Assembly (NCBI GenBank): GCA_009379815.1
Contig: WHSY01000002.1
Span: forward strand, 22,074 to 86,073
Length of the DNA: 64,000 nucleotides
Reading direction: 5' to 3'
Source: Pseudonocardiaceae bacterium
Lineage (GTDB): Bacteria > Actinomycetota > Actinomycetes > Mycobacteriales > Pseudonocardiaceae
Part shown: positions 37,320 to 49,580 of the stretch, piece by piece
Layout: each line of letters starts with the position of its first letter
How positions within the stretch are numbered: position 1 is the stretch's first letter
Program-made: the position numbers and the translations under genes
Notes under the pieces: model-generated
Database searches by the model: none
What the model saw: the letters and a program-made list of their open reading frames with translations, nothing else
Told to the model about the DNA's origin: nothing

Positions 37320-37715
37320 GTGACCGATCGGACCGTGCAGTCGCGGTGGGACGGCGGGCTGCGCGCCGTGGTGCAAGCCGGTGGTTTCGAGCTCACCGTG
37401 GACGAGCCGGAGTCCATGGGCGGCACGGATCGGGGGCCGCAACCGACCGATCTGCTGCTGGCGTCGGTCGCGTCCTGCTTCACCCTCGCGATGGCCTACA
37501 GCGCAGCCAAGCGCGACATCGAGCTCGAGGGCCTCGACGTCGACGTCACCGGCCGCTACGACGGGCCGCGGTTCTCCCGGTTGCTGATCGAGGTCCGGGC
37601 GCAGCGGCCGGCGGGCGCCGAGCTGGCCCGGCTGGTCAGCGCGGCAGAACGGGTCTGCTACGTGACCAACACGCTACGGCGCCCTCCCGAGATCGAGATC
37701 GTCGGCGCCAGCTGA
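37320..37715 (+). CDS. OsmC/Ohr-family peroxiredoxin-like protein
   Basis: Track ORF 37272..37715. Start moved to GTG 37320 (GGAGGTGG upstream). GGTDRGPQPTDLLLASVASCFTLAMAY and ERVCYVTNTL hold the two conserved Cys. Its 3' end overlaps larC by 42 nt (convergent). Confidence 0.75.
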   Translation: MTDRTVQSRWDGGLRAVVQAGGFELTVDEPESMGGTDRGPQPTDLLLASVASCFTLAMAYSAAKRDIELEGLDVDVTGRYDGPRFSRLLIEVRAQRPAGAELARLVSAAERVCYVTNTLRRPPEIEIVGAS

Positions 37716-38846
37716 CTCCCGTCGTGCCCTGTCGGCCACCACCCGCACGGGCACGTCGAGCGCCACGGCCGCCGCCACCACGTCGTCGTGCTCGGGCTTG
37801 GCTCCCCACGGACCGCGCTTGACCCTGATCGGGTGGCCGTCGACGTCGACGGTGCTGTCGCTGCGGGGCAGTGCCAGCCGGTCGACGTGGCTTCGGCGAA
37901 GCCCGAGGCTGCCGGTCTCGGCGAGCACGAGCCGCTCGAGCTGCGCGGCACGTTCCGGCGGGGCGAGCACGTGCACGGTGTGCGCCGGGCGGTTCTTCTT
38001 CATCACGATCGGCGAGACCCAGACGTCCGCCGCTCCGGCCTGCAGCGCCACGCCGATGAGGTGGCCGAGCACCTCGCCGGTCACGTCGTCGACGTTGGTC
38101 TCGAGGAGCACGAACGACGCGGCGGTCGGCGAACGCGAACCCAGCACGACCTGCAGCACGTTGGGCCGGTCCTCGAACTGCTTGCTGCCCGCGCCGTAGC
38201 CCGCGCCTCGCAGCGTCATCGCCGGCAGCGCCCCGTACCGCGCACCGGCCGCGAGCAGCAGGGCGGCGCCGGTCGGGGTGACGGTCTCGCCGTCGAGCCC
38301 GGCACCGGTGATCTCCGCGCCCGCCTCGGCGAGCAGGGCCAGCGTGGCGGGAGCGGGAGCGGGCAGCGCGCCGTGCCTGGTGGCCACCGAGCCCGCACCC
38401 AGCCCCAGCGGGCCGCAGTGCACTTCGGTCACGCCGAGTAGGTGCAGGGCGGCCGCGACCCCCACGGTGTCGACCACGGTGTCCAGCCCGCCGATCTCGT
38501 GCAGCGCAACCTGGTCGGGATCCGCGGCGTGCAGCCGCCCCTCGACGCCGGCGATCGCCGTCACGGCGGCGGCGGCCAGCTGCGCCACCGGCGCCGGCCG
38601 GGCGTGGCCGATCAGCTCGAGGAGCTGCGCCGCCCGCCGCTCGGTCGCCGTGTCGGTCACCCCCACGACCGCGCGGGTAGCGCCGAGACCGCCCCGCCGG
38701 ACGCGCTCCGCGGCCAGCGTCCAGCCGGTGATCCCGGTGCTCGCGACCGCGTCACGGATGCCGTCGACCGGGGCGCCGAGGTCGATGAGGGCACCGAGCA
38801 GCATGTCCCCGGAGATCCCGTTGAACGGGTTGCACCAGAGGATCAC
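37674..38846 (-). CDS. larC: Nickel-pincer cofactor biosynthesis protein LarC (nickel insertion)
   Basis: GTG 38846 overlaps the larB stop (GTGA), in frame with track ORF 37674..38936. VILWCNPFNGISGDMLLGALIDLGAP is the typical LarC N-terminus. Confidence 0.8.
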   Translation of the reverse strand: MILWCNPFNGISGDMLLGALIDLGAPVDGIRDAVASTGITGWTLAAERVRRGGLGATRAVVGVTDTATERRAAQLLELIGHARPAPVAQLAAAAVTAIAGVEGRLHAADPDQVALHEIGGLDTVVDTVGVAAALHLLGVTEVHCGPLGLGAGSVATRHGALPAPAPATLALLAEAGAEITGAGLDGETVTPTGAALLLAAGARYGALPAMTLRGAGYGAGSKQFEDRPNVLQVVLGSRSPTAASFVLLETNVDDVTGEVLGHLIGVALQAGAADVWVSPIVMKKNRPAHTVHVLAPPERAAQLERLVLAETGSLGLRRSHVDRLALPRSDSTVDVDGHPIRVKRGPWGAKPEHDDVVAAAVALDVPVRVVADRARRESAGADDLDLGRAP

Positions 38847-39523
38847 CGCCGCTCCCGGACCGTCGCGATCCGGTGTGCGGCCATGGCGGCACCGAACCCG
38901 GAGTCGATGTTCACCACGACCACGCCGGCCGCGCACGAGGTGAGCATCGCCAGCATCGGCGTGATCCCGTCGAGTGCAGCCCCGTAGCCCACCGAGGTGG
39001 GGACCGCGATCACCGGGCAGTCCACCAGACCGCCCACCACGCTGGGCAGCGCGCCATCCATGCCGGCCACGCAGATCAGCGCATCCGCGGCGGCCAGGTC
39101 GTCGGTCTCGGCGAGCAGCCGGTGGATCCCGGCCACGCCGACATCGGCCAGCAGCCGGGCGGACAGGCCGATCGCCGTGGCCACTGCCACCGCCTCGGCC
39201 GCGACCGGCCCGTCCGAGGTACCGGCCGAGGCCACCACGACCCGGAACCCCCGCGACCGGGCGTGCCGCCAGCTCAGCACGCGGGCGACCTCGTCGTAGC
39301 TGCCGCCGGGCAGCTGTGCGGAAACCTCGTCGGCCTTCTGCGGCGCCAGCCGCGTCGCCAGCACCGGCCCGGTGTTGGCCTCGAGCAGGCTCCCGACGAT
39401 CGCGACGATCTGCCCGGGGGCCTTGCCCGGCCCGTACACGACCTCCGGAAGGCCCTGACGGCTCTCCCGGCCCACGTCCGGGCGGGCGAAGCCGAGATCG
39501 GTGAAGCCACCCCCACCGCTCAC
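38843..39523 (-). CDS. larB: Nickel-pincer cofactor biosynthesis protein LarB (PurE-like carboxylase/hydrolase)
   Basis: GTG 39523 overlaps the larE stop (GTGA). VVVASAGTSDGPVAAEA and VAGMDGALPSVVGGL PurE-like motifs; 226 aa. Confidence 0.8.
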   Translation of the reverse strand: MSGGGGFTDLGFARPDVGRESRQGLPEVVYGPGKAPGQIVAIVGSLLEANTGPVLATRLAPQKADEVSAQLPGGSYDEVARVLSWRHARSRGFRVVVASAGTSDGPVAAEAVAVATAIGLSARLLADVGVAGIHRLLAETDDLAAADALICVAGMDGALPSVVGGLVDCPVIAVPTSVGYGAALDGITPMLAMLTSCAAGVVVVNIDSGFGAAMAAHRIATVRERR

Positions 39524-40359
39524 CGGGCGGCCGCAGCCGGCATACCGAGCAGCACGTTCATCCGGCCGCTGGCAAAGCCCTGCAGGTCCAGCGCGCAGAA
39601 CGCGAACCCCGCACCGCGAACCGCGGCGTCGAGATCCGTCCGCAGCCCGGCAGCGCGGTCCACCTCGTCGGCGGGCACCTCGACCCTGGCCACGGCGCCG
39701 TCGCCGTGCGAGCGCACCCGGCAGACCGGGAAGCCCAGCGCCCGGACCGCCTCCTCGGCGACCTCGATGCGGTGCAGGAGCTCCTCGGTGACCGGCTCCC
39801 CGTAGGCGACGCGCGAGGCGAGGCAGGCCGCCGCAGGCTTCGCCGCGGTCGACAGCCCCAGCGCCGCGCTCACCCGGCGCACCTCGGCCTTGCCGAAACC
39901 GACGTCGCACAGCGGCGCGATGGCACCTCGGGCAGCGGCGGCGTGCTGGCCGGGACGGTGATCTCCGAGGTCGTCGACATTCGTGCCCAGTGCCACGTTG
40001 GCGCCGGACAGCGTCGCCAGCGGCTCGACCGCGTCGAACAGCGCCGACTTGCAGTGGTAGCAGCGGTCGCCCGCATTGGCCACGTACTCGGGGCGCTCGA
40101 TCTCGTCGGTGCGCACCTCGACGTGGGCGATGCCGCGAGCCCGGGCGAGCTCCCTGGCGGCCCTGCGCTCGGCGGCGGGCAGGCTCGACGAGACGGCCGT
40201 GACGGCGACGGCCCGATCACCGAGCACCTCGGTGGCCACCGCCGCCACCAGCGCGGAGTCCACGCCCCCGGAGTAGGCGACGATCAGCCGCTGTTCGCCC
40301 CGCAGGCGTTCCCGCAACCGCGCCAGGAGAGCCCCCGCCGGGGTTTCGACCTCGTCCAT
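39520..40359 (-). CDS. larE: ATP-dependent sacrificial sulfur transferase LarE (PP-loop)
   Basis: Track ORF 39520..40398. ATG 40359 preferred (GAAGGTG upstream). PP-loop IVAYSGGVDSALVA and Cys in KPAAACLASRV. Confidence 0.8.
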   Translation of the reverse strand: MDEVETPAGALLARLRERLRGEQRLIVAYSGGVDSALVAAVATEVLGDRAVAVTAVSSSLPAAERRAARELARARGIAHVEVRTDEIERPEYVANAGDRCYHCKSALFDAVEPLATLSGANVALGTNVDDLGDHRPGQHAAAARGAIAPLCDVGFGKAEVRRVSAALGLSTAAKPAAACLASRVAYGEPVTEELLHRIEVAEEAVRALGFPVCRVRSHGDGAVARVEVPADEVDRAAGLRTDLDAAVRGAGFAFCALDLQGFASGRMNVLLGMPAAAAR

Positions 40360-40462
40360 CCAGGCACCTTCGGCCGCCACGGTCGTTGACCCCATCACCT
40401 TAGGTACGCTTCACCGTCCCGTACAGGCTCGCCGCGCGACGCACCCGCGCGTCCCCGCCCCG

Positions 40463-41290: not shown

Positions 41291-43564
41291 TCAGGTGGAC
41301 GGGGCGAGCGGGCGGAAGCGGCGCAACCGCAGGCTGTTGGACACCACGAACGCGCTGGACAACGCCATCGCCGCTCCCGCGATCATGGGGTTGAGCAGCC
41401 CCAACGCGGCCAGCGGCAGCGCTGCCACGTTGTAGGCGAACGCCCAGAACAGGTTGCCCTTGATCGTGCCCAGCGTGCGGCGGGACAGCCGGATTGCGTC
41501 CGCAGCCACCCGCAGATCGCCACGTACGAGGGTGAGGTCACCTGCCTCCATGGCGACATCGGTGCCGGTGCCCATCGCCAGGCCCAGGTCGGCCTGTGCC
41601 AGCGCAGCGGCGTCATTGACGCCGTCACCGACCATCGCGACGACGCGGCGCTGCGACTGCAGCCGCCGCACCTCCTCGACCTTGCCCTCGGGCAGCACCC
41701 CGGCAATGACGTCGTCGATGCCCACCTCGGCGGCCACGGCACGGGCGACCGTCTCGTTGTCGCCGGTGAGCAGCACCGGGTGCAACTCGAGCTCACGCAG
41801 CGATGCCACTGCCGGGGCGCTGGTGGGCTTGACGGTGTCGGCGACGGTGAGCAGGCCCCGCACCTGCCCGTCCCAGGCGACGGCGACGACGGTGCGGCCG
41901 TTGCGCTCCGACTGCGCCGACGCCCCGGCCAGCGCCCCGGGCAGGGCCGACGACCACGCTTCGGCGAGCCAGGCCGGTCGCCCCACCAGCACGGCCCGGC
42001 CCTCGACCTCGCCGGCGACGCCGAGGCCTTCGCTCGAGGTGAACCCCGACACCGCCGGGAGGGAGCTGCAGCGCTGCCGGGCCCCGTCGGCGATGGCGCG
42101 GGCGACCGGGTGCTCGGAGGCGTCTTCCACCGCCCCGGCCAGGCGCAGCACGTCGCCGGCGTCCTGGCCGGGCACGGGCAGCACGTCGACCAGCGACATG
42201 GTGCCGGTGGTGATGGTGCCGGTCTTGTCCAGCAGCACGGTGTCGACACGGCGGGTCGACTCCAGCACCTCCGGACCCTTGATCAAAATGCCCAGCTGCG
42301 CGCCCCGGCCGGTGCCGACGAGCAGCGCGGTCGGCGTCGCGAGGCCCAGCGCACAGGGGCAGGCGATGATGAGCACGGCGACGGCGGCGGTGAAGGCCGC
42401 GGCCGCCGCTGCCCCGGCGGCGAGCCACACCACCAGGGTGGCCGCCGCGATCACGATGACGACCGGCACGAACACGGCGGAGATGCGGTCGGCCAGCCGC
42501 TGCACCTGCGCCTTGCCGCTCTGCGCTTCCTGCACCAGCTTCGTCATCTGCGCCAGCCGGGTATCGGCGCCGACGTGGGTGGCACGAACCGTCAGCCGGC
42601 CGCCGGAGTTCACCGTCCCGCCGGTGACGGCCGAACCGGGTGACACCTGGACCGGCACCGACTCTCCGGTGAGCATGCTCTCGTCGATGGCCGAGGAGCC
42701 GTCGACGACCTCCCCGTCGGTGGCGAGCCGCTCGCCCGGCCGCACCAGGAACCGGTCACCGACCGCGAGCTCCTCGGTCGGGATCCGCACCTCGGTGAGG
42801 CTGCCGGGGCCGTCGCGCAGCACTGCGACATCGCGGGCACCGAGATCCAGCAGCGCTCGAAGCGCGGCGCCGGCCCGCCGCTTGGACCGCGCCTCGAAAT
42901 AGCGCCCCAGCAGGATGAATGTGGTGACCCCCGCGGCCACCTCGAGGTAGATCTGCCCATCGCCTGCCATCCGGCTGGCGGTGAGGCTGAACTCATGGGT
43001 CATCCCCGGCACTCCGGCCGAGCCCAGGAACAGCGCGTAGAGCGACCAGCCGAACGCGGCGAGCACGCCCATGGAGATCAGGGTGTCCATCGTGGCCGCG
43101 CCGTGGCGCAGGTTGGCCCAGGTGGCGCGGTGAAACGGCAGCGCGCCCCAGACCACGACCGGGGAGGCCAGCACCAGCGAGAGCCACTGCCAGTGGGTGA
43201 ACTGCAGCGGTGGCACCATCGCCAGCACGATCACCGGTACCGACAGGGTGGTCGAGACCAGCACCCGGTCGCGCAGCGCCCCGATCTCGCCCGGTTGCTC
43301 GGCATCGCCGGGCTCGGGAGTGGCCAGCTCCGGCAGTTCGGCTGTGTAGCCGGTCCGGACGACCGCGTCCACCAGGTCGTCCGGTGTCACGGCGTCGGCA
43401 TAGCGGACCCGGGCCTTCTCGGTGGCATAGTTGACGCTCGCACTCACCCCGTCGAGCCGGTTGAGCTTCTTCTCGATCCGCGCCGCGCAGGAGGCGCAGG
43501 TCATACCCCCGATCGACAGCTCGACTCGGTGGTCCAGTGGTGCCGGATCGGTGGCCGTGCTCAT
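41291..43564 (-). CDS. copA: Copper-translocating P-type ATPase
   Basis: ATG 43564 overlaps the copZ stop (ATGA), in frame with track ORF 41291..43726. GMTCASCAARIEKKL, CPC (IIACPCALGLATP), DKTGT, GDGVNDAAAL. Confidence 0.9.
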   Translation of the reverse strand: MSTATDPAPLDHRVELSIGGMTCASCAARIEKKLNRLDGVSASVNYATEKARVRYADAVTPDDLVDAVVRTGYTAELPELATPEPGDAEQPGEIGALRDRVLVSTTLSVPVIVLAMVPPLQFTHWQWLSLVLASPVVVWGALPFHRATWANLRHGAATMDTLISMGVLAAFGWSLYALFLGSAGVPGMTHEFSLTASRMAGDGQIYLEVAAGVTTFILLGRYFEARSKRRAGAALRALLDLGARDVAVLRDGPGSLTEVRIPTEELAVGDRFLVRPGERLATDGEVVDGSSAIDESMLTGESVPVQVSPGSAVTGGTVNSGGRLTVRATHVGADTRLAQMTKLVQEAQSGKAQVQRLADRISAVFVPVVIVIAAATLVVWLAAGAAAAAAFTAAVAVLIIACPCALGLATPTALLVGTGRGAQLGILIKGPEVLESTRRVDTVLLDKTGTITTGTMSLVDVLPVPGQDAGDVLRLAGAVEDASEHPVARAIADGARQRCSSLPAVSGFTSSEGLGVAGEVEGRAVLVGRPAWLAEAWSSALPGALAGASAQSERNGRTVVAVAWDGQVRGLLTVADTVKPTSAPAVASLRELELHPVLLTGDNETVARAVAAEVGIDDVIAGVLPEGKVEEVRRLQSQRRVVAMVGDGVNDAAALAQADLGLAMGTGTDVAMEAGDLTLVRGDLRVAADAIRLSRRTLGTIKGNLFWAFAYNVAALPLAALGLLNPMIAGAAMALSSAFVVSNSLRLRRFRPLAPST

Positions 43565-43782
43565 CCGGCCACGACCTCGTAACCTGCCTCGTCGATCGCC
43601 GCCCGGACCTCGGCGTCGTCGAGCGCCCGGTCGCTGTGTACGCGGACCCGGCCACTGTCGAGGTCGACGTCGACACCGGCGACGCCGTCGATGCGGCCGA
43701 CCGCATCGGTGACCGCGTCGATGCAATGCCGGCAGCTCATCCCGCTGACGGTGTACTCGAACACGGTGTCGGTGCCGGCCAT
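43561..43782 (-). CDS. copZ: Heavy-metal-associated copper chaperone
   Basis: ATG 43782 (GAGGAG upstream), in frame with track ORF 43561..43842. VSGMSCRHCIDAV metal-binding motif; 73 aa. Confidence 0.8.
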   Translation of the reverse strand: MAGTDTVFEYTVSGMSCRHCIDAVTDAVGRIDGVAGVDVDLDSGRVRVHSDRALDDAEVRAAIDEAGYEVVAG

Positions 43783-46555: not shown

Positions 46556-47428
46556 TTGTCTCGACACCGCTCCCCCGGCGGCAACAGACCCAGTACAGCC
46601 CTCGATACGGCACCCGCGCACGCCCGCGGCCATAGTCGAGGTGCGCACCGGCTCCCCCACCCCTCACCCAGCGCACGTGGCCGCGTCATGGTGGCCGCCG
46701 TCGCCGTTGGCGCCGTCACCGCCGCGGCCCAGGGACTCGACCCGGCCGGCGGTGACAAGCCGGCAGACACCACGCTGCTGGCCTTCGGCGGCGACGCCGC
46801 GGCGGGATTCACCGGAGTCGGCGGCGCCGCGCCCGCACCCGGGGTACTCCCGCTGCCCGACGTCATGCCGGTGACGCAGGACAGCGGCGTCCAGGACGTC
46901 GCGAGCCTGGCCAAAGGTCAGCAGCTCGCGGAGGAGCGTGCCGCCGCCGAGCGGGAGGCCGCCGAGCAAGCGGCCGCCGAACGCGCCGCCGCCGAGCGGG
47001 AGGCCGCCGCGGACGGTGCCTCGCAGCTGCCGGTATCGGCCGGCGAGGTCGTCAGGCCGGCTTCCGGGGAACTCACCTCGGGCTTCGGTTCCCGCTGGGG
47101 CTCGTCGCACAACGGCATCGACATCGCCAACGAGATCGGGACTCCGATCTACTCGACCACCGACGGGATCGTCGTCGAGTCCGGCCCGGCGAGCGGGTTC
47201 GGGATGTGGGTGCAGGTCGAGCACCCCGACGACACCATCTCGGTCTACGGTCACATCCACGACTCCCTGGTCTCGGAGGGCCAGCAGGTCAAGGCCGGCG
47301 AGCAGATCGCGACGATGGGCAACCGCGGCCAGTCGACCGGCCCGCACCTGCACTTCGAGATCTGGCAGAACGGCGACGAGAAGATCAACCCGCTGAGCTG
47401 GCTGCAGCAGTACGGCGTCGACATCTGA
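46556..47428 (+). CDS. M23-family peptidoglycan metalloendopeptidase
   Basis: 3' part of track ORF 45587..47428. TTG 46556 (GGAAGGG upstream) is tentative; ATG 46688 is the alternative. Catalytic motifs HNGIDIANEIGTPIYSTTDG and GQSTGPHLHFEI. Confidence 0.8.
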   Translation: MSRHRSPGGNRPSTALDTAPAHARGHSRGAHRLPHPSPSARGRVMVAAVAVGAVTAAAQGLDPAGGDKPADTTLLAFGGDAAAGFTGVGGAAPAPGVLPLPDVMPVTQDSGVQDVASLAKGQQLAEERAAAEREAAEQAAAERAAAEREAAADGASQLPVSAGEVVRPASGELTSGFGSRWGSSHNGIDIANEIGTPIYSTTDGIVVESGPASGFGMWVQVEHPDDTISVYGHIHDSLVSEGQQVKAGEQIATMGNRGQSTGPHLHFEIWQNGDEKINPLSWLQQYGVDI

Positions 47429-47610
47429 CGCCTGCGAGCCCCTCAGGCCGCCGGCGCCACCGCGGCATCGCGCTCGGGCACCGGCAGGCCGGTGATCCTG
47501 CGAGGTCGGCCGGTACCGCCCCAGGAACGCTGCCAGGCTCAGCCCCGCCCAGCGCACCTCGGAGACGGTCCACGCGGTGCGCCACCAGGCAAGCTCCATA
47601 CCTGCCAGCA

Positions 47611-47632
47611 TGTCTGCGCAATCACGCAGACA
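47611..47632. promoter_or_regulatory. Inverted repeat TGTCTGCG-CAATCA-CGCAGACA (candidate ArsR/SmtB operator)
   Basis: Perfect 8-bp arms read directly, ending 22 nt upstream of the arsR-family start codon. Confidence 0.45.
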
Positions 47633-47654
47633 CGAAGGTTAGTACTCTCAAGGC

Positions 47655-47987
47655 GTGCACGATGGGATCCCCGACCTCGACATGCCCGCCGACGAGCAGG
47701 TCCACCTCGCGGCGGAGTCGTTCCGCCTGCTCTGCGATCCCACCCGGATCAAGATCTTGTGGGCGCTGCTGCAGGGCGAGTCCTCGGTGTCCTGCCTGGC
47801 CGAGCTGGTCGGGGCGGCACCGACCGCGGTGAGTCAGCACCTGGCCAAGCTGCGGCTGGCCGGGCTGGTGTCAGGGCGCCGCGAGGGCACCTTCGTCTAC
47901 TACACCGCGGCGAGCGATCACGTACGAGGCCTGCTCGCCGAGGCGCTCGGGCACGCGGAGGGCGCCGAGCGCGCCACCGCCCGATGA
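47655..47987 (+). CDS. ArsR/SmtB-family metalloregulator
   Basis: ORF 47655..47987. LLCDPTRIKILWALLQGESSVSCLAELVGAAPTAVSQHLAKLRLAGLV. Confidence 0.85.
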   Translation: MHDGIPDLDMPADEQVHLAAESFRLLCDPTRIKILWALLQGESSVSCLAELVGAAPTAVSQHLAKLRLAGLVSGRREGTFVYYTAASDHVRGLLAEALGHAEGAERATAR

Positions 47988-48034
47988 GGCGGCCGGTGGC
48001 CCGGCCCGGCCCGGATCCCCGCGCGCGGGACCGT

Positions 48035-48154
48035 TCAGTGCCACTCGGAGCCGGCAACGGCACGGTGCCACTCGGAACCCCTGTGCCACTCGGAACTCGC
48101 CGCTCCTGCCGCGAGCCGGTGCCACTCGGAACCAGCGGAGGTGAAGTGCGTCAT
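48035..48154 (-). CDS. Candidate 39-aa peptide with four SEWH repeats
   Basis: ATG 48154 preceded by AAGGAG at 7-nt spacing. It translates MTHFTSAGSEWHRLAAGAASSEWHRGSEWHRAVAGSEWH*. It is the internal part of track ORF 48035..48247. Coding status is unproven. Confidence 0.4.
   Translation of the reverse strand: MTHFTSAGSEWHRLAAGAASSEWHRGSEWHRAVAGSEWH
48038..48132. repeat. Four dispersed direct copies of GTGCCACTCGGA(A/G)C
   Basis: Copies start at 48038, 48065, 48083 and 48119 (read directly). The 12-nt core is identical in all four. On the minus strand they encode SEWH with identical codons. Confidence 0.85.
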
Positions 48155-48278
48155 GTGAATCTCCTTCGATCGGCTCCGTCCATGGCGTGCGTCACACCAC
48201 CAATCGGAGCAGCGACAGTTGGTGAACCAGCGGTTACGGTGGATCACACTGTCGGATAACTCTTACGGGGAATGCATC

Positions 48279-49580
48279 GTGAGTGTCGCCCCTACGGCGC
48301 GGGCAGGGGAAGCACAGTTCGTCACACTCCGGCGTCGATTGTCACCTGGGCGATGGCCGTTATGGTCCCAGCCGGGTCGAGTCGTCGCGCTCGTTCTGCT
48401 CGTCGACACACTCGCGGTCCTGCTCGCGGCGCTGGCCCTCCGGACTCCCACCACCCCGAAGGACGCGCTCGGCTTCGCCGTCCTCGCGGTCGGTGCGATC
48501 CTGCACCTGGAGGCGGCTCGCGGCATCGAGCGGCTGCGGGAAGTGGCATCCGAGGGCGTCGCCTACGTCAACCTCAAGGCGATGTGGAACTTCGCGGCCG
48601 TGCTGCTGCTGCCCCCGGCACTGGCCGTGGCGCTGGTCGCTGTGACCTACACGCACTGCTGGGTGCGTGTCACCCGTCGCACACCGCTCTACCGCAAGGC
48701 GTTCTCGGCGGCCACCATCGTGCTGGCCGGCGCGGCCGCGCTGCTCGTGCTCGCCGCGATCGACCCGCCGACGCGGCTGGGACTGGCGGAAGGTCCGGTC
48801 GGGCTGCTCGCGATGCTCCTGGCCGCGACGGCATTCTGGCTGGTCAACCATGGTCTCGTGGTTGGTGCCATCCTGCTGTCCCGGCCGGGAACGCGAATCC
48901 GCACCGCGATCGGTGAACCGAGTGACCAGCTGGTGCTGGCCGGTTCCATCGGGCTCGGCGTCGCCATCGCCTCGCTGATGAACAGCGAGTCGTGGCTGGT
49001 CGTGGTGCTCATGGTGTCGGTGCTCGCGCTGCACCGGGCCGTGCTGGTACCGCAGTTCCGCAACGCCGCGCGGCACGACCCGAAGACCGGTCTCGCCAAC
49101 TCCGTGTTCTGGCACGAGATGGCAGGCAAGGAGCTTGAACGCTCCCGGCGCACCGGCGTCCCACTGGGCATCCTGATGATCGACATCGATCACTTCAAGA
49201 CCCTCAACGACGGGCACGGGCACCTCGCAGGCGATGAAGTCCTCAAGGCCGTCGCCCGCGAGCTGCAGCAGCAGATGCGCCCGTACGACCTGGCCGGTCG
49301 CTTCGGCGGGGAGGAGTTCGTGCTGCTGCTGCCGGGCGTGGGTGCCGGTGAGGTCGGTCACGTCGCCGAGCGGATCCGGGCCCGGATCTCCGGGCTCGCC
49401 GTGCCGGTGCTCGGGCTCGACGGGAAGGCTTCGCAGCTCGACCACATCACCGTCTCGGTCGGCGCGGCGGTCGGCCCCGCCGACGCCGAGGAGCTCGACC
49501 GGCTGCTGCTGGCCGCGGACACGGCCCTGCTCCACGCCAAGGAGGCGGGACGCAACCAGGTCGTCCTCGCACCGTGCTGA
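48279..49580 (+). CDS. Membrane-anchored diguanylate cyclase (GGDEF domain)
   Basis: Track ORF 48219..49580; GTG 48279 chosen and the start is uncertain. About six hydrophobic helices, then DIDHFKTLNDGHGHLAGDEVL and RFGGEEFVLLLPG. Confidence 0.85.
   Translation: MSVAPTARAGEAQFVTLRRRLSPGRWPLWSQPGRVVALVLLVDTLAVLLAALALRTPTTPKDALGFAVLAVGAILHLEAARGIERLREVASEGVAYVNLKAMWNFAAVLLLPPALAVALVAVTYTHCWVRVTRRTPLYRKAFSAATIVLAGAAALLVLAAIDPPTRLGLAEGPVGLLAMLLAATAFWLVNHGLVVGAILLSRPGTRIRTAIGEPSDQLVLAGSIGLGVAIASLMNSESWLVVVLMVSVLALHRAVLVPQFRNAARHDPKTGLANSVFWHEMAGKELERSRRTGVPLGILMIDIDHFKTLNDGHGHLAGDEVLKAVARELQQQMRPYDLAGRFGGEEFVLLLPGVGAGEVGHVAERIRARISGLAVPVLGLDGKASQLDHITVSVGAAVGPADAEELDRLLLAADTALLHAKEAGRNQVVLAPC

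Follow-up and report, generated by a model that had tools for sequence, protein, structure and literature searches.

MgrB and SafA, coupled to PhoQ, and YfiR, coupled to YfiN (DgcN), are encoded by very short genes, each linked to a membrane sensor or signalling enzyme. Here we analyse a small open reading frame (sORF) that resembles them in this respect. It lies in a 64,000-nucleotide stretch of DNA from an uncultured Pseudonocardiaceae bacterium (assembly GCA_009379815.1, contig WHSY01000002.1, positions 22,074 to 86,073 of the forward strand; the window in what follows), encodes four SEWH units and is transcribed divergently from the gene of a membrane diguanylate cyclase with a GGDEF domain. 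Modulation of a partner enzyme is a plausible role common to the sORF product and these proteins. However, proteins of the MgrB/SafA/YfiR type are single-pass membrane proteins or folded periplasmic proteins without internal repeats, whereas the predicted product of the sORF is a hydrophilic protein with neither a signal nor a transmembrane segment, consists of a variable array of a 4-5-residue motif and comes from a divergently transcribed gene.

Multi-core precursors of ribosomally synthesised and post-translationally modified peptides (RiPPs), such as the graspetides of the plesiocin and thuringinin type with their repeated Thr/Ser...Asp/Glu cores, the cyanobactins and the triceptides, are also small and consist of near-identical units whose copy number varies between strains, and in both cases the units contain hydroxyl, acidic and aromatic residues. 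The sORF loci differ from RiPP loci in that their surroundings are devoid of genes for ATP-grasp, radical-SAM, YcaO or P450 enzymes or for proteases, and a conserved leader or recognition sequence is missing as well. Moreover, whole clades have Asn in the place of Ser/Thr, which is incompatible with ester cross-links. The leader and arrest peptides TrpL and TnaC share with the sORF a short length, Trp codons, a strong ribosome-binding site and a place in a regulatory intergenic region; the sORF differs from them in having no downstream gene in cis, dispersed Trp codons, conserved residues next to these and no evident alternative hairpins. Finally, disordered motif arrays of eukaryotes, such as the DPW/NPF motifs of endocytic adaptors and the W-acidic motifs that bind kinesin, have a similarly tiny acid-aromatic motif, variable spacers, low confidence in structure prediction and an evolvable copy number, which suggests binding by avidity. 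They belong to another kingdom and another context, and this is a functional analogy only, with no homology.

The repeat-encoding sORF and its relatives

The preliminary description of this DNA had reported an ORF with an AAGGAG sequence in front of it and four SEWH units, and all of these were confirmed. The features of the sORF are the following, the repeats having been located by an exact-match scan and a repeat search:

48154..48035, minus strand: sORF, 39 codons plus TGA, translated as MTHFTSAGSEWHRLAAGAASSEWHRGSEWHRAVAGSEWH and a stop
48130..48119, minus strand: repeat 1, TCC GAG TGG CAC (SEWH)
48094..48083, minus strand: repeat 2, TCC GAG TGG CAC (SEWH)
48076..48065, minus strand: repeat 3, TCC GAG TGG CAC (SEWH)
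48049..48038, minus strand: repeat 4, TCC GAG TGG CAC (SEWH), with the stop codon directly after it

The AAGGAG Shine-Dalgarno (SD) sequence (48166..48161, minus strand) is separated by a 6-nucleotide (nt) spacer from the ATG at 48154..48152, and the TGA stop occupies 48037..48035 on the same strand. The sequence TCCGAGTGGCAC, encoding SEWH, is present in exactly four copies within 93 nt, all inside the sORF, with start-to-start spacings of 36, 18 and 27 nt, and the repeat search lengthens these copies to 17 nt at 88-100% identity. No further exact copy exists on either strand of the window, and the same pattern with up to two mismatches is not enriched elsewhere in it (8 found against 13.5 expected). 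Four exact 12-mers inside 93 nt are thus far beyond chance. The spacing in multiples of nine seen in the window was considered as a meaningful property and rejected, as relatives also have spacings of 21, 24, 30 and 33 nt.

Orthologous loci were sought in genomes and metagenomes with the cyclase and later with its N-terminal membrane domain only, since generic matches to the GGDEF domain dominated an initial genome scan with the whole protein, in which just four loci (L001, L002, L003 and L034) aligned beyond that domain. In this way 23 distinct loci were found in which a GGDEF orthologue has a divergent sORF upstream, from Amycolatopsis, Saccharothrix, Actinosynnema, uncultured Pseudonocardiaceae and soil metagenomes. 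The named genomes bearing the sORF are Amycolatopsis melonis, Amycolatopsis sp. CA-126428, A. bullii, Actinosynnema sp. ALI-1.44 and Saccharothrix algeriensis (CP072788.1, 6739926..6740087, plus strand); it is also present in three Pseudonocardiaceae metagenome-assembled genomes (MAGs) whose cyclase is about 80% identical to that of the window, and in most metagenome loci for which upstream DNA was available. Each sORF holds 2-11 copies of a unit of the form [G/P/S]-[N/S/T]-[D/E]-W-x, exemplified by GSEWH, PTDWT, GNEWT/F, STDWTF and RPSEWR:

L083, relative with a cyclase about 80% identical: window-type sORF
L085, relative with a cyclase about 80% identical: sORF MTVTTQSSSARGSEWHRGSEWHVTGSEWHRGSEWH and a stop
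L084, relative with a cyclase about 80% identical: sORF MRPTTQSSSAPGSEWHRGSESH and a stop
L001, L002, L081, L082 and metagenome loci, Amycolatopsis type: M(T/S)HFLP...SRRRAQR, then 7-11 PTDWT
L089, Actinosynnema sp. ALI-1.44: six GNEW(F)
L090, Saccharothrix algeriensis: six GNEW(T/S/N)
L092, metagenome: five GNEWT
L093, L094, L102, metagenome: six STDWTF
L095, L096, metagenome: three RPTDW
L097, metagenome: two RPNDW
L099, L114, metagenome: two RPSEWR
L101, L111, L113, metagenome: four GNEWF

The N-terminal regions of these sORFs, of 5-20 residues, are unrelated between clades. The residue after Trp is His in the window clade only and T, F, R, L, A, S or N elsewhere; Cys is found in linkers or tails and never in the repeat motif. 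In many clades the motif has Arg next to it (GSEWHR, PTDWTR, GNEWTVR, RPSEWRR), the GNEWF and STDWTF repeats being without it. As a control, a six-frame scan for at least three [DE]W pairs, each within 16 residues of the next, gave no cluster in 76 unrelated GGDEF loci (about 0.6 Mb), and in the window the sORF was its sole match. The first four codons of the window sORF, ATG ACG CAC TTC (MTHF, 48152-48143), are the same as in Amycolatopsis melonis (L001, 3798-3787), while the closest relatives of the window start with MMAT, MRPT or MTVT; the common start could be an ancestral remnant or a coincidence.

Small proteins are routinely missed by annotation, and this family is very probably undescribed and unannotated as such, judging from the searches made: a family of microproteins built of tandem motifs and genetically tied to a fixed partner in cyclic di-GMP (c-di-GMP) signalling. 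Neither the window peptide nor its Amycolatopsis homologue had a match in Pfam or NCBIfam at E <= 1, in agreement with the earlier remark that the peptide belonged to no recognised family. An exhaustive phmmer search of the 39-residue peptide against 1.84 billion representative proteins returned just two unrelated repeat proteins, and a word-indexed protein search with the 70-residue extended ORF returned none. The window sORF was absent from a collection of 15 billion proteins upon exact lookup, as were three of the four homologues looked up. Nothing relevant was found in the literature on the motif strings or on small ORFs or tandem-repeat small proteins tied to diguanylate cyclases. Independent gene callers, for their part, had annotated the sORF in at least four assemblies.

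Conservation at the peptide and DNA levels

A comparison of conservation at the peptide and the DNA level in relatives, suggested in the preliminary description as a check, proved decisive and favours the peptide, with synonymous changes and with frame and start maintained. An SD sequence of the GGAG or GAGG type lies 5-10 nt before the start codon in all 23 distinct sORFs (ATG being replaced by GTG once). When the core GA[CG]TGG was located blind to the reading frame, core spacings took 11 values (18, 21, 24, 27, 30, 33, 36, 39, 42, 48 and 57 nt), all of them multiples of 3, and spacings such as 18, 24, 27 and 36 nt are out of step with helical phasing. The Trp is invariant in 124 core copies and the other positions vary synonymously, with Ser written as TCC, TCG or AGC, Glu as GAG or GAA, Thr as ACC, ACG or ACT and Gly as GGC, GGT, GGA or GGG; within the single sORF of L099, PSEWR is written both as CCC TCC GAG TGG CGC and as CCC AGC GAA TGG CGC.

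Copies found by DNA similarity alone fell in the sORF frame in 127 of 129 cases. Of the mismatches between copies, 63 concerned codon position 3, 7 concerned position 1 and 4 position 2, which corresponds to 63 synonymous and 11 non-synonymous differences; these counts have to be discounted to some extent, as the copies within a locus are homogenised and hence not independent observations, and as detection by similarity tilts the count somewhat toward synonymous differences. Another point on the same side is that one other sense frame is also free of stops in all loci, as expected at such G+C content. Read in that frame, the third-position mismatches would be second-position changes. The pooled sORFs have G+C contents of 0.57, 0.66 and 0.91 at the first, second and third codon positions (GC1, GC2 and GC3), the coding signature of high-G+C actinomycetes. 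In the alignable first 41 codons of the Amycolatopsis-type sORFs the ratio of non-synonymous to synonymous differences (pN/pS) is about 0.35, and the sole indel there is an extra Arg, in frame.

The antisense frames contain stops in 4-5 of the 23 loci, and the open antisense register differs by clade (VPLG in the window, VQSVG in Amycolatopsis). A 255-codon plus-strand ORF of the window (47492-48259), which covers both the sORF in antisense, as VPLGT repeats, and the ArsR-type gene beyond it, is an artefact of high G+C content; the antisense frame is not kept in other clades. The stop codon comes right after the last unit in all four genomes of the window clade (window, L083, L084 and L085) and in most sORFs overall. 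The Ser codon is TCC in all four units of the window and TCG in all units of its relatives, so that the identical codons noticed in the window reflect recent duplication or homogenisation within a genome and not a constraint at the DNA level. As shown by comparison, selection acts on the peptide and not on the DNA repeat, and we consider it highly probable from these patterns that the sORF is a real coding gene.

Linkage to a membrane cyclase

The preliminary description had the sORF convergent with an ArsR-family gene and divergent from a membrane GGDEF gene, and this arrangement was confirmed. It was right in calling the GGDEF gene a divergent neighbour and fell short in treating it as a neighbour only, since it is the conserved partner. 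The features next to the sORF are:

47655..47987, plus strand: ArsR/SmtB-type gene, convergent with the sORF, matching HTH_5 (Pfam) and NF033788 (NCBIfam)
48213..48254: conserved imperfect palindrome of 42 nt, CGACAGTGTGATCCACCGTAACCGCTGGTTCACCAACTGTCG on the minus strand, seen in the alignment with L083-L085
48279..49580, plus strand: membrane GGDEF gene, divergent from the sORF (Pfam GGDEF, E = 1e-40)

The GGDEF ORF is open from 48219; the annotation of the source MAG places its start at the GTG at 48279, giving a product of 433 residues, and the window cyclase is 100% identical to this 433-residue Pseudonocardiaceae MAG protein. It consists of a multi-pass membrane sensor domain and a GGDEF diguanylate cyclase domain with an intact GGEEF active site, an RxxD I-site and the motif RPYDLAGRFGGEEF; the loop HLEAARGIERLRE of the cyclase is invariant.

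In L083-L085 the gene order is LLM oxidoreductase, DUF3048, M23 peptidase, sORF, GGDEF and FbiC, which is the order of the window minus ArsR, and the gap of about 20-130 nt between the M23 peptidase gene and the sORF holds no ArsR gene. The presence of ArsR between these two genes in the window looks like a lineage-specific insertion, unless the relatives have lost it. Other clades have a different gene there, in Amycolatopsis and Saccharothrix one that is convergent with the sORF and encodes a transporter of the major facilitator superfamily (MFS); the MFS gene also adjoins orthologues that have no sORF (L003, L091 and L110) and is missing from the window clade. The next gene beyond the sORF is convergent in every locus, be it ArsR, M23 peptidase or MFS, and the cyclase is the only constant neighbour. 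Moreover, the repeat types of the sORFs group with the clades of a neighbour-joining tree of the cyclases. Comparison of the loci thus shows vertical co-inheritance of the sORF with one orthologous family of membrane cyclases, in Pseudonocardiaceae and related soil actinomycetes. The functional context of the sORF is likely to be the cyclase, and the ArsR gene beside it in the window is incidental.

The region between the two genes may contain control elements common to both. In the palindrome one pair of positions differs in a compensatory manner, T...A in the window and C...G in L083-L085, and its core CAC[CT]GTAA[CT]C recurs across clades, including L110, which has no sORF. On the plus strand this core reads TACGGT or TACAGT; in the window TACGGT, at 48235-48240, is a -10-like hexamer about 40 nt before the GGDEF start. 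We infer that the palindrome block is a candidate promoter or operator of the cyclase gene. The fold of the palindrome as RNA is not significant (z -1.6 to about -1.8), and the same holds for the folds of the 3' end of the sORF, of its whole transcript region and of the leader of the GGDEF gene (z -0.85 to -1.84). A promoter consensus scan gave one sigma-70-like site, located within the GGDEF coding region, and a consensus scan for terminator-like sites gave none.

Besides the LLM oxidoreductase and FbiC genes, which flank the window locus too, Pfam identified LarC, PP-loop ATPase, HIT, P-type ATPase, DUF3048, M23, SDR, AMP-binding enzyme and acyl-CoA dehydrogenase genes among the neighbours in the window. 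The heavy-metal P-type ATPase with an HMA domain (41291-43726, minus strand) lies about 4 kb from the ArsR gene and may be the real target of ArsR. At 37674-40398 on the minus strand, genes for a LarC-type nickel-insertion protein and a LarE-like PP-loop ATPase, with a HIT-family gene alongside, are probably a nickel-pincer cofactor locus unrelated to the sORF. In Amycolatopsis the cyclase gene faces a convergent gene for a TrpB-like PALP enzyme (L081, 2232-3584; L001, 5326-7182), a striking neighbour for a peptide with Trp repeats, but one that is not conserved in other clades.

A putative motif array in c-di-GMP signalling

According to the present data, the explanation that we favour, by a modest balance of probability, is that the sORF encodes a translated microprotein with a variable number of copies of an acid-Trp motif, which acts within the c-di-GMP module of the cyclase. 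The product would have a short and variable N-terminus followed by a variable number (four in the window) of a 4-5-residue motif, each unit comprising a small or turn residue, a capping residue (N/S/T), an acid (D/E), Trp and a further residue. It is predicted to be cytoplasmic, because it has no signal peptide or hydrophobic segment, and largely disordered. The motifs are unevenly spaced even inside one protein, with spacers of 1 to about 12 residues, which argues against a regular solenoid fold, and the mean predicted local distance difference test score (pLDDT) of 48 in an AlphaFold2 model of the Amycolatopsis protein is compatible with disorder.

Every sORF has at least two motif-like units, counting the second unit of L084, degraded to SESH. 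Repetition, a variable copy number and never fewer than two units fit an array of short linear motifs that binds by avidity. The divergently encoded cyclase would be the most economical binding partner, and the array could, for instance, bind it and bridge its protomers. GGDEF enzymes act as dimers and their activity depends on dimerisation. That the product works in this manner, as a multivalent ligand of the cyclase, is a tentative proposal; as an alternative, the product could be a target of the cyclase that is co-expressed with it locally.

Some observations weigh against a microprotein tied to the cyclase. The N-terminus of the sORF is poorly conserved even between the close relatives L083-L085, and the sORF of L084 has just two units, the second degraded to GSESH by a TGG to TCG change (W to S; about 2856-2788, minus strand), a sign perhaps of decay or of an assembly error. 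AlphaFold2, run on the window peptide as a single sequence, gives a confident helix, at odds with disorder; for a peptide of 39 residues such a model would be unreliable. Finally, the sORF is missing at the orthologous cyclase loci L086/L087, L088, L110, L091, L106, L003 and L034, and hence the cyclase does not need it.

A repeat search found no degenerate repeat array in these loci. The cyclases of L086, L088 and L110 are nested in the clade that carries the sORF, pointing to losses of the sORF, and those of L091/L106 and L003/L034 branch outside it. RxxD and GG(D/E)EF are kept in nearly all cyclases; degenerate active sites are found in two of the nested cyclases without sORF, GGEVF in L088 (Kribbella sp.) and GGVDF in L110 (metagenome), and the cyclases of the GNEWF clade (L089, L101) carry GGDEL. 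In this tiny sample there is a hint that the sORF and catalysis may be lost together.

It is also possible, and in our view unlikely, that the sORF encodes several copies of an exported signal peptide or RiPP in one precursor, with the repeats as its cores. Cleavage, for example at the flanking Arg, would then release hexapeptides of the GSEWHR type, to be modified or exported by the products of distant genes; the membrane domain of the cyclase might sense them. A small ORF with 2-11 near-identical short units, the Arg beside the motif in many clades, a membrane sensor protein as partner and an MFS transporter gene as the other neighbour in Amycolatopsis and Saccharothrix are all in line with this idea. 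However, genes for a modifying enzyme, a protease or a RiPP recognition element are missing both from the 10 kb or so around the window sORF and from the flanks of its relatives. The product lacks a signal peptide as well as a conserved leader or follower, the N-terminus being of 5-20 residues and variable. The STDWTF and GNEWF clades have no basic cleavage sites, and the MFS gene, found also beside orthologues without the sORF, does not occur in the window clade. The RiPP-like precursor contemplated in the preliminary description loses ground on both the missing enzymes and the unconserved N-terminal region.

Since cyclases and effectors are often encoded together, the sORF product might itself be an effector that binds c-di-GMP, each acid-Trp unit contacting or stacking on a guanine. 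Known receptors use short repeated motifs that combine acidic and aromatic residues with Arg, and Arg follows the motif in many clades. However, the GNEWF and STDWTF repeats have no Arg, there is no Pfam or NCBIfam match, and inspection of all sORF sequences revealed no motif of the PilZ (RxxxR with D/NxSxxG), BldD (RxD-x8-RxxD) or RsiG type, so that we find this improbable.

We give about the same small chance to the sORF being a cis-acting regulatory ORF, the translation of which, for instance through sensing of Trp-tRNA supply or stalling by the nascent peptide, would control the cyclase gene or an overlapping transcript, the released peptide being idle. The short ORF with its strong SD sequence, the repeated Trp with its single codon and the conserved control region common to the sORF and the cyclase gene would suit such a role. 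Nevertheless, no locus has a downstream gene on the same strand, which bears out the earlier statement that there is no downstream gene to attenuate. The Trp codons are 6-19 codons apart and not clustered, the neighbours of each Trp are conserved and the units number from 2 to 11. Nor was any terminator or antiterminator signal found, the folds were not significant (z -0.85, -1.6), and Rfam 15 had no covariance-model match at E <= 5 on either strand of 47400-48700.

Two other readings may essentially be rejected as properties of the family. That the repeats are an operator or iteron array in the DNA upstream of the cyclase gene, with an incidental ORF, was raised in the preliminary description, and it is favoured by the presence of four identical 12-mers where the DNA before a regulated gene looks intergenic, together with a core CGA[GC]TGG conserved as DNA across clades; we nonetheless hold it to be very improbable, as it is contradicted by spacings in multiples of 3 that misfit helical phasing, by third-position and synonymous variation between copies (TCC and AGC for Ser included), by the conserved SD sequence, start codon and stop just past the last repeat, and by a GC3 of 0.91. 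The repeats may still have a dual role, as DNA site as well as peptide. Least probable of all is the earlier suggestion that the sORF product is a His/Glu/Trp metal-binding peptide under the control of the neighbouring ArsR/SmtB regulator, since the adjoining ArsR gene and the His and Glu in each unit that favour it in the window are set against a convergent gene arrangement, the absence of ArsR from this position in the three closest relatives, which do have the sORF, and in all other clades, a His confined to the window clade and replaced elsewhere, and a repeat motif without Cys.

The design of the proposed microprotein is unusual, as it is almost wholly made of one 4-5-residue motif whose copy number differs between species. 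We know of no described inputs for most cyclases of Pseudonocardiaceae, and the pairing of the sORF with one family of membrane cyclases offers a testable entry to c-di-GMP control in this family, including the antibiotic producers Amycolatopsis and Saccharothrix. It is conceivable, though far from assured, that the sORF and the membrane GGDEF protein form a new two-gene signalling module of actinomycetes, with the acid-Trp array, variable in copy number, as a dedicated ligand of the cyclase that bridges or clusters its protomers inside the cell or is released as a multi-copy peptide pheromone; if so, a ribosomal peptide would be coupled directly to the synthesis of c-di-GMP. Should the peptide prove to act on the cyclase as ligand or regulator, it would represent a new kind of input to c-di-GMP signalling, and if it does not, it would still represent a new family of microproteins.

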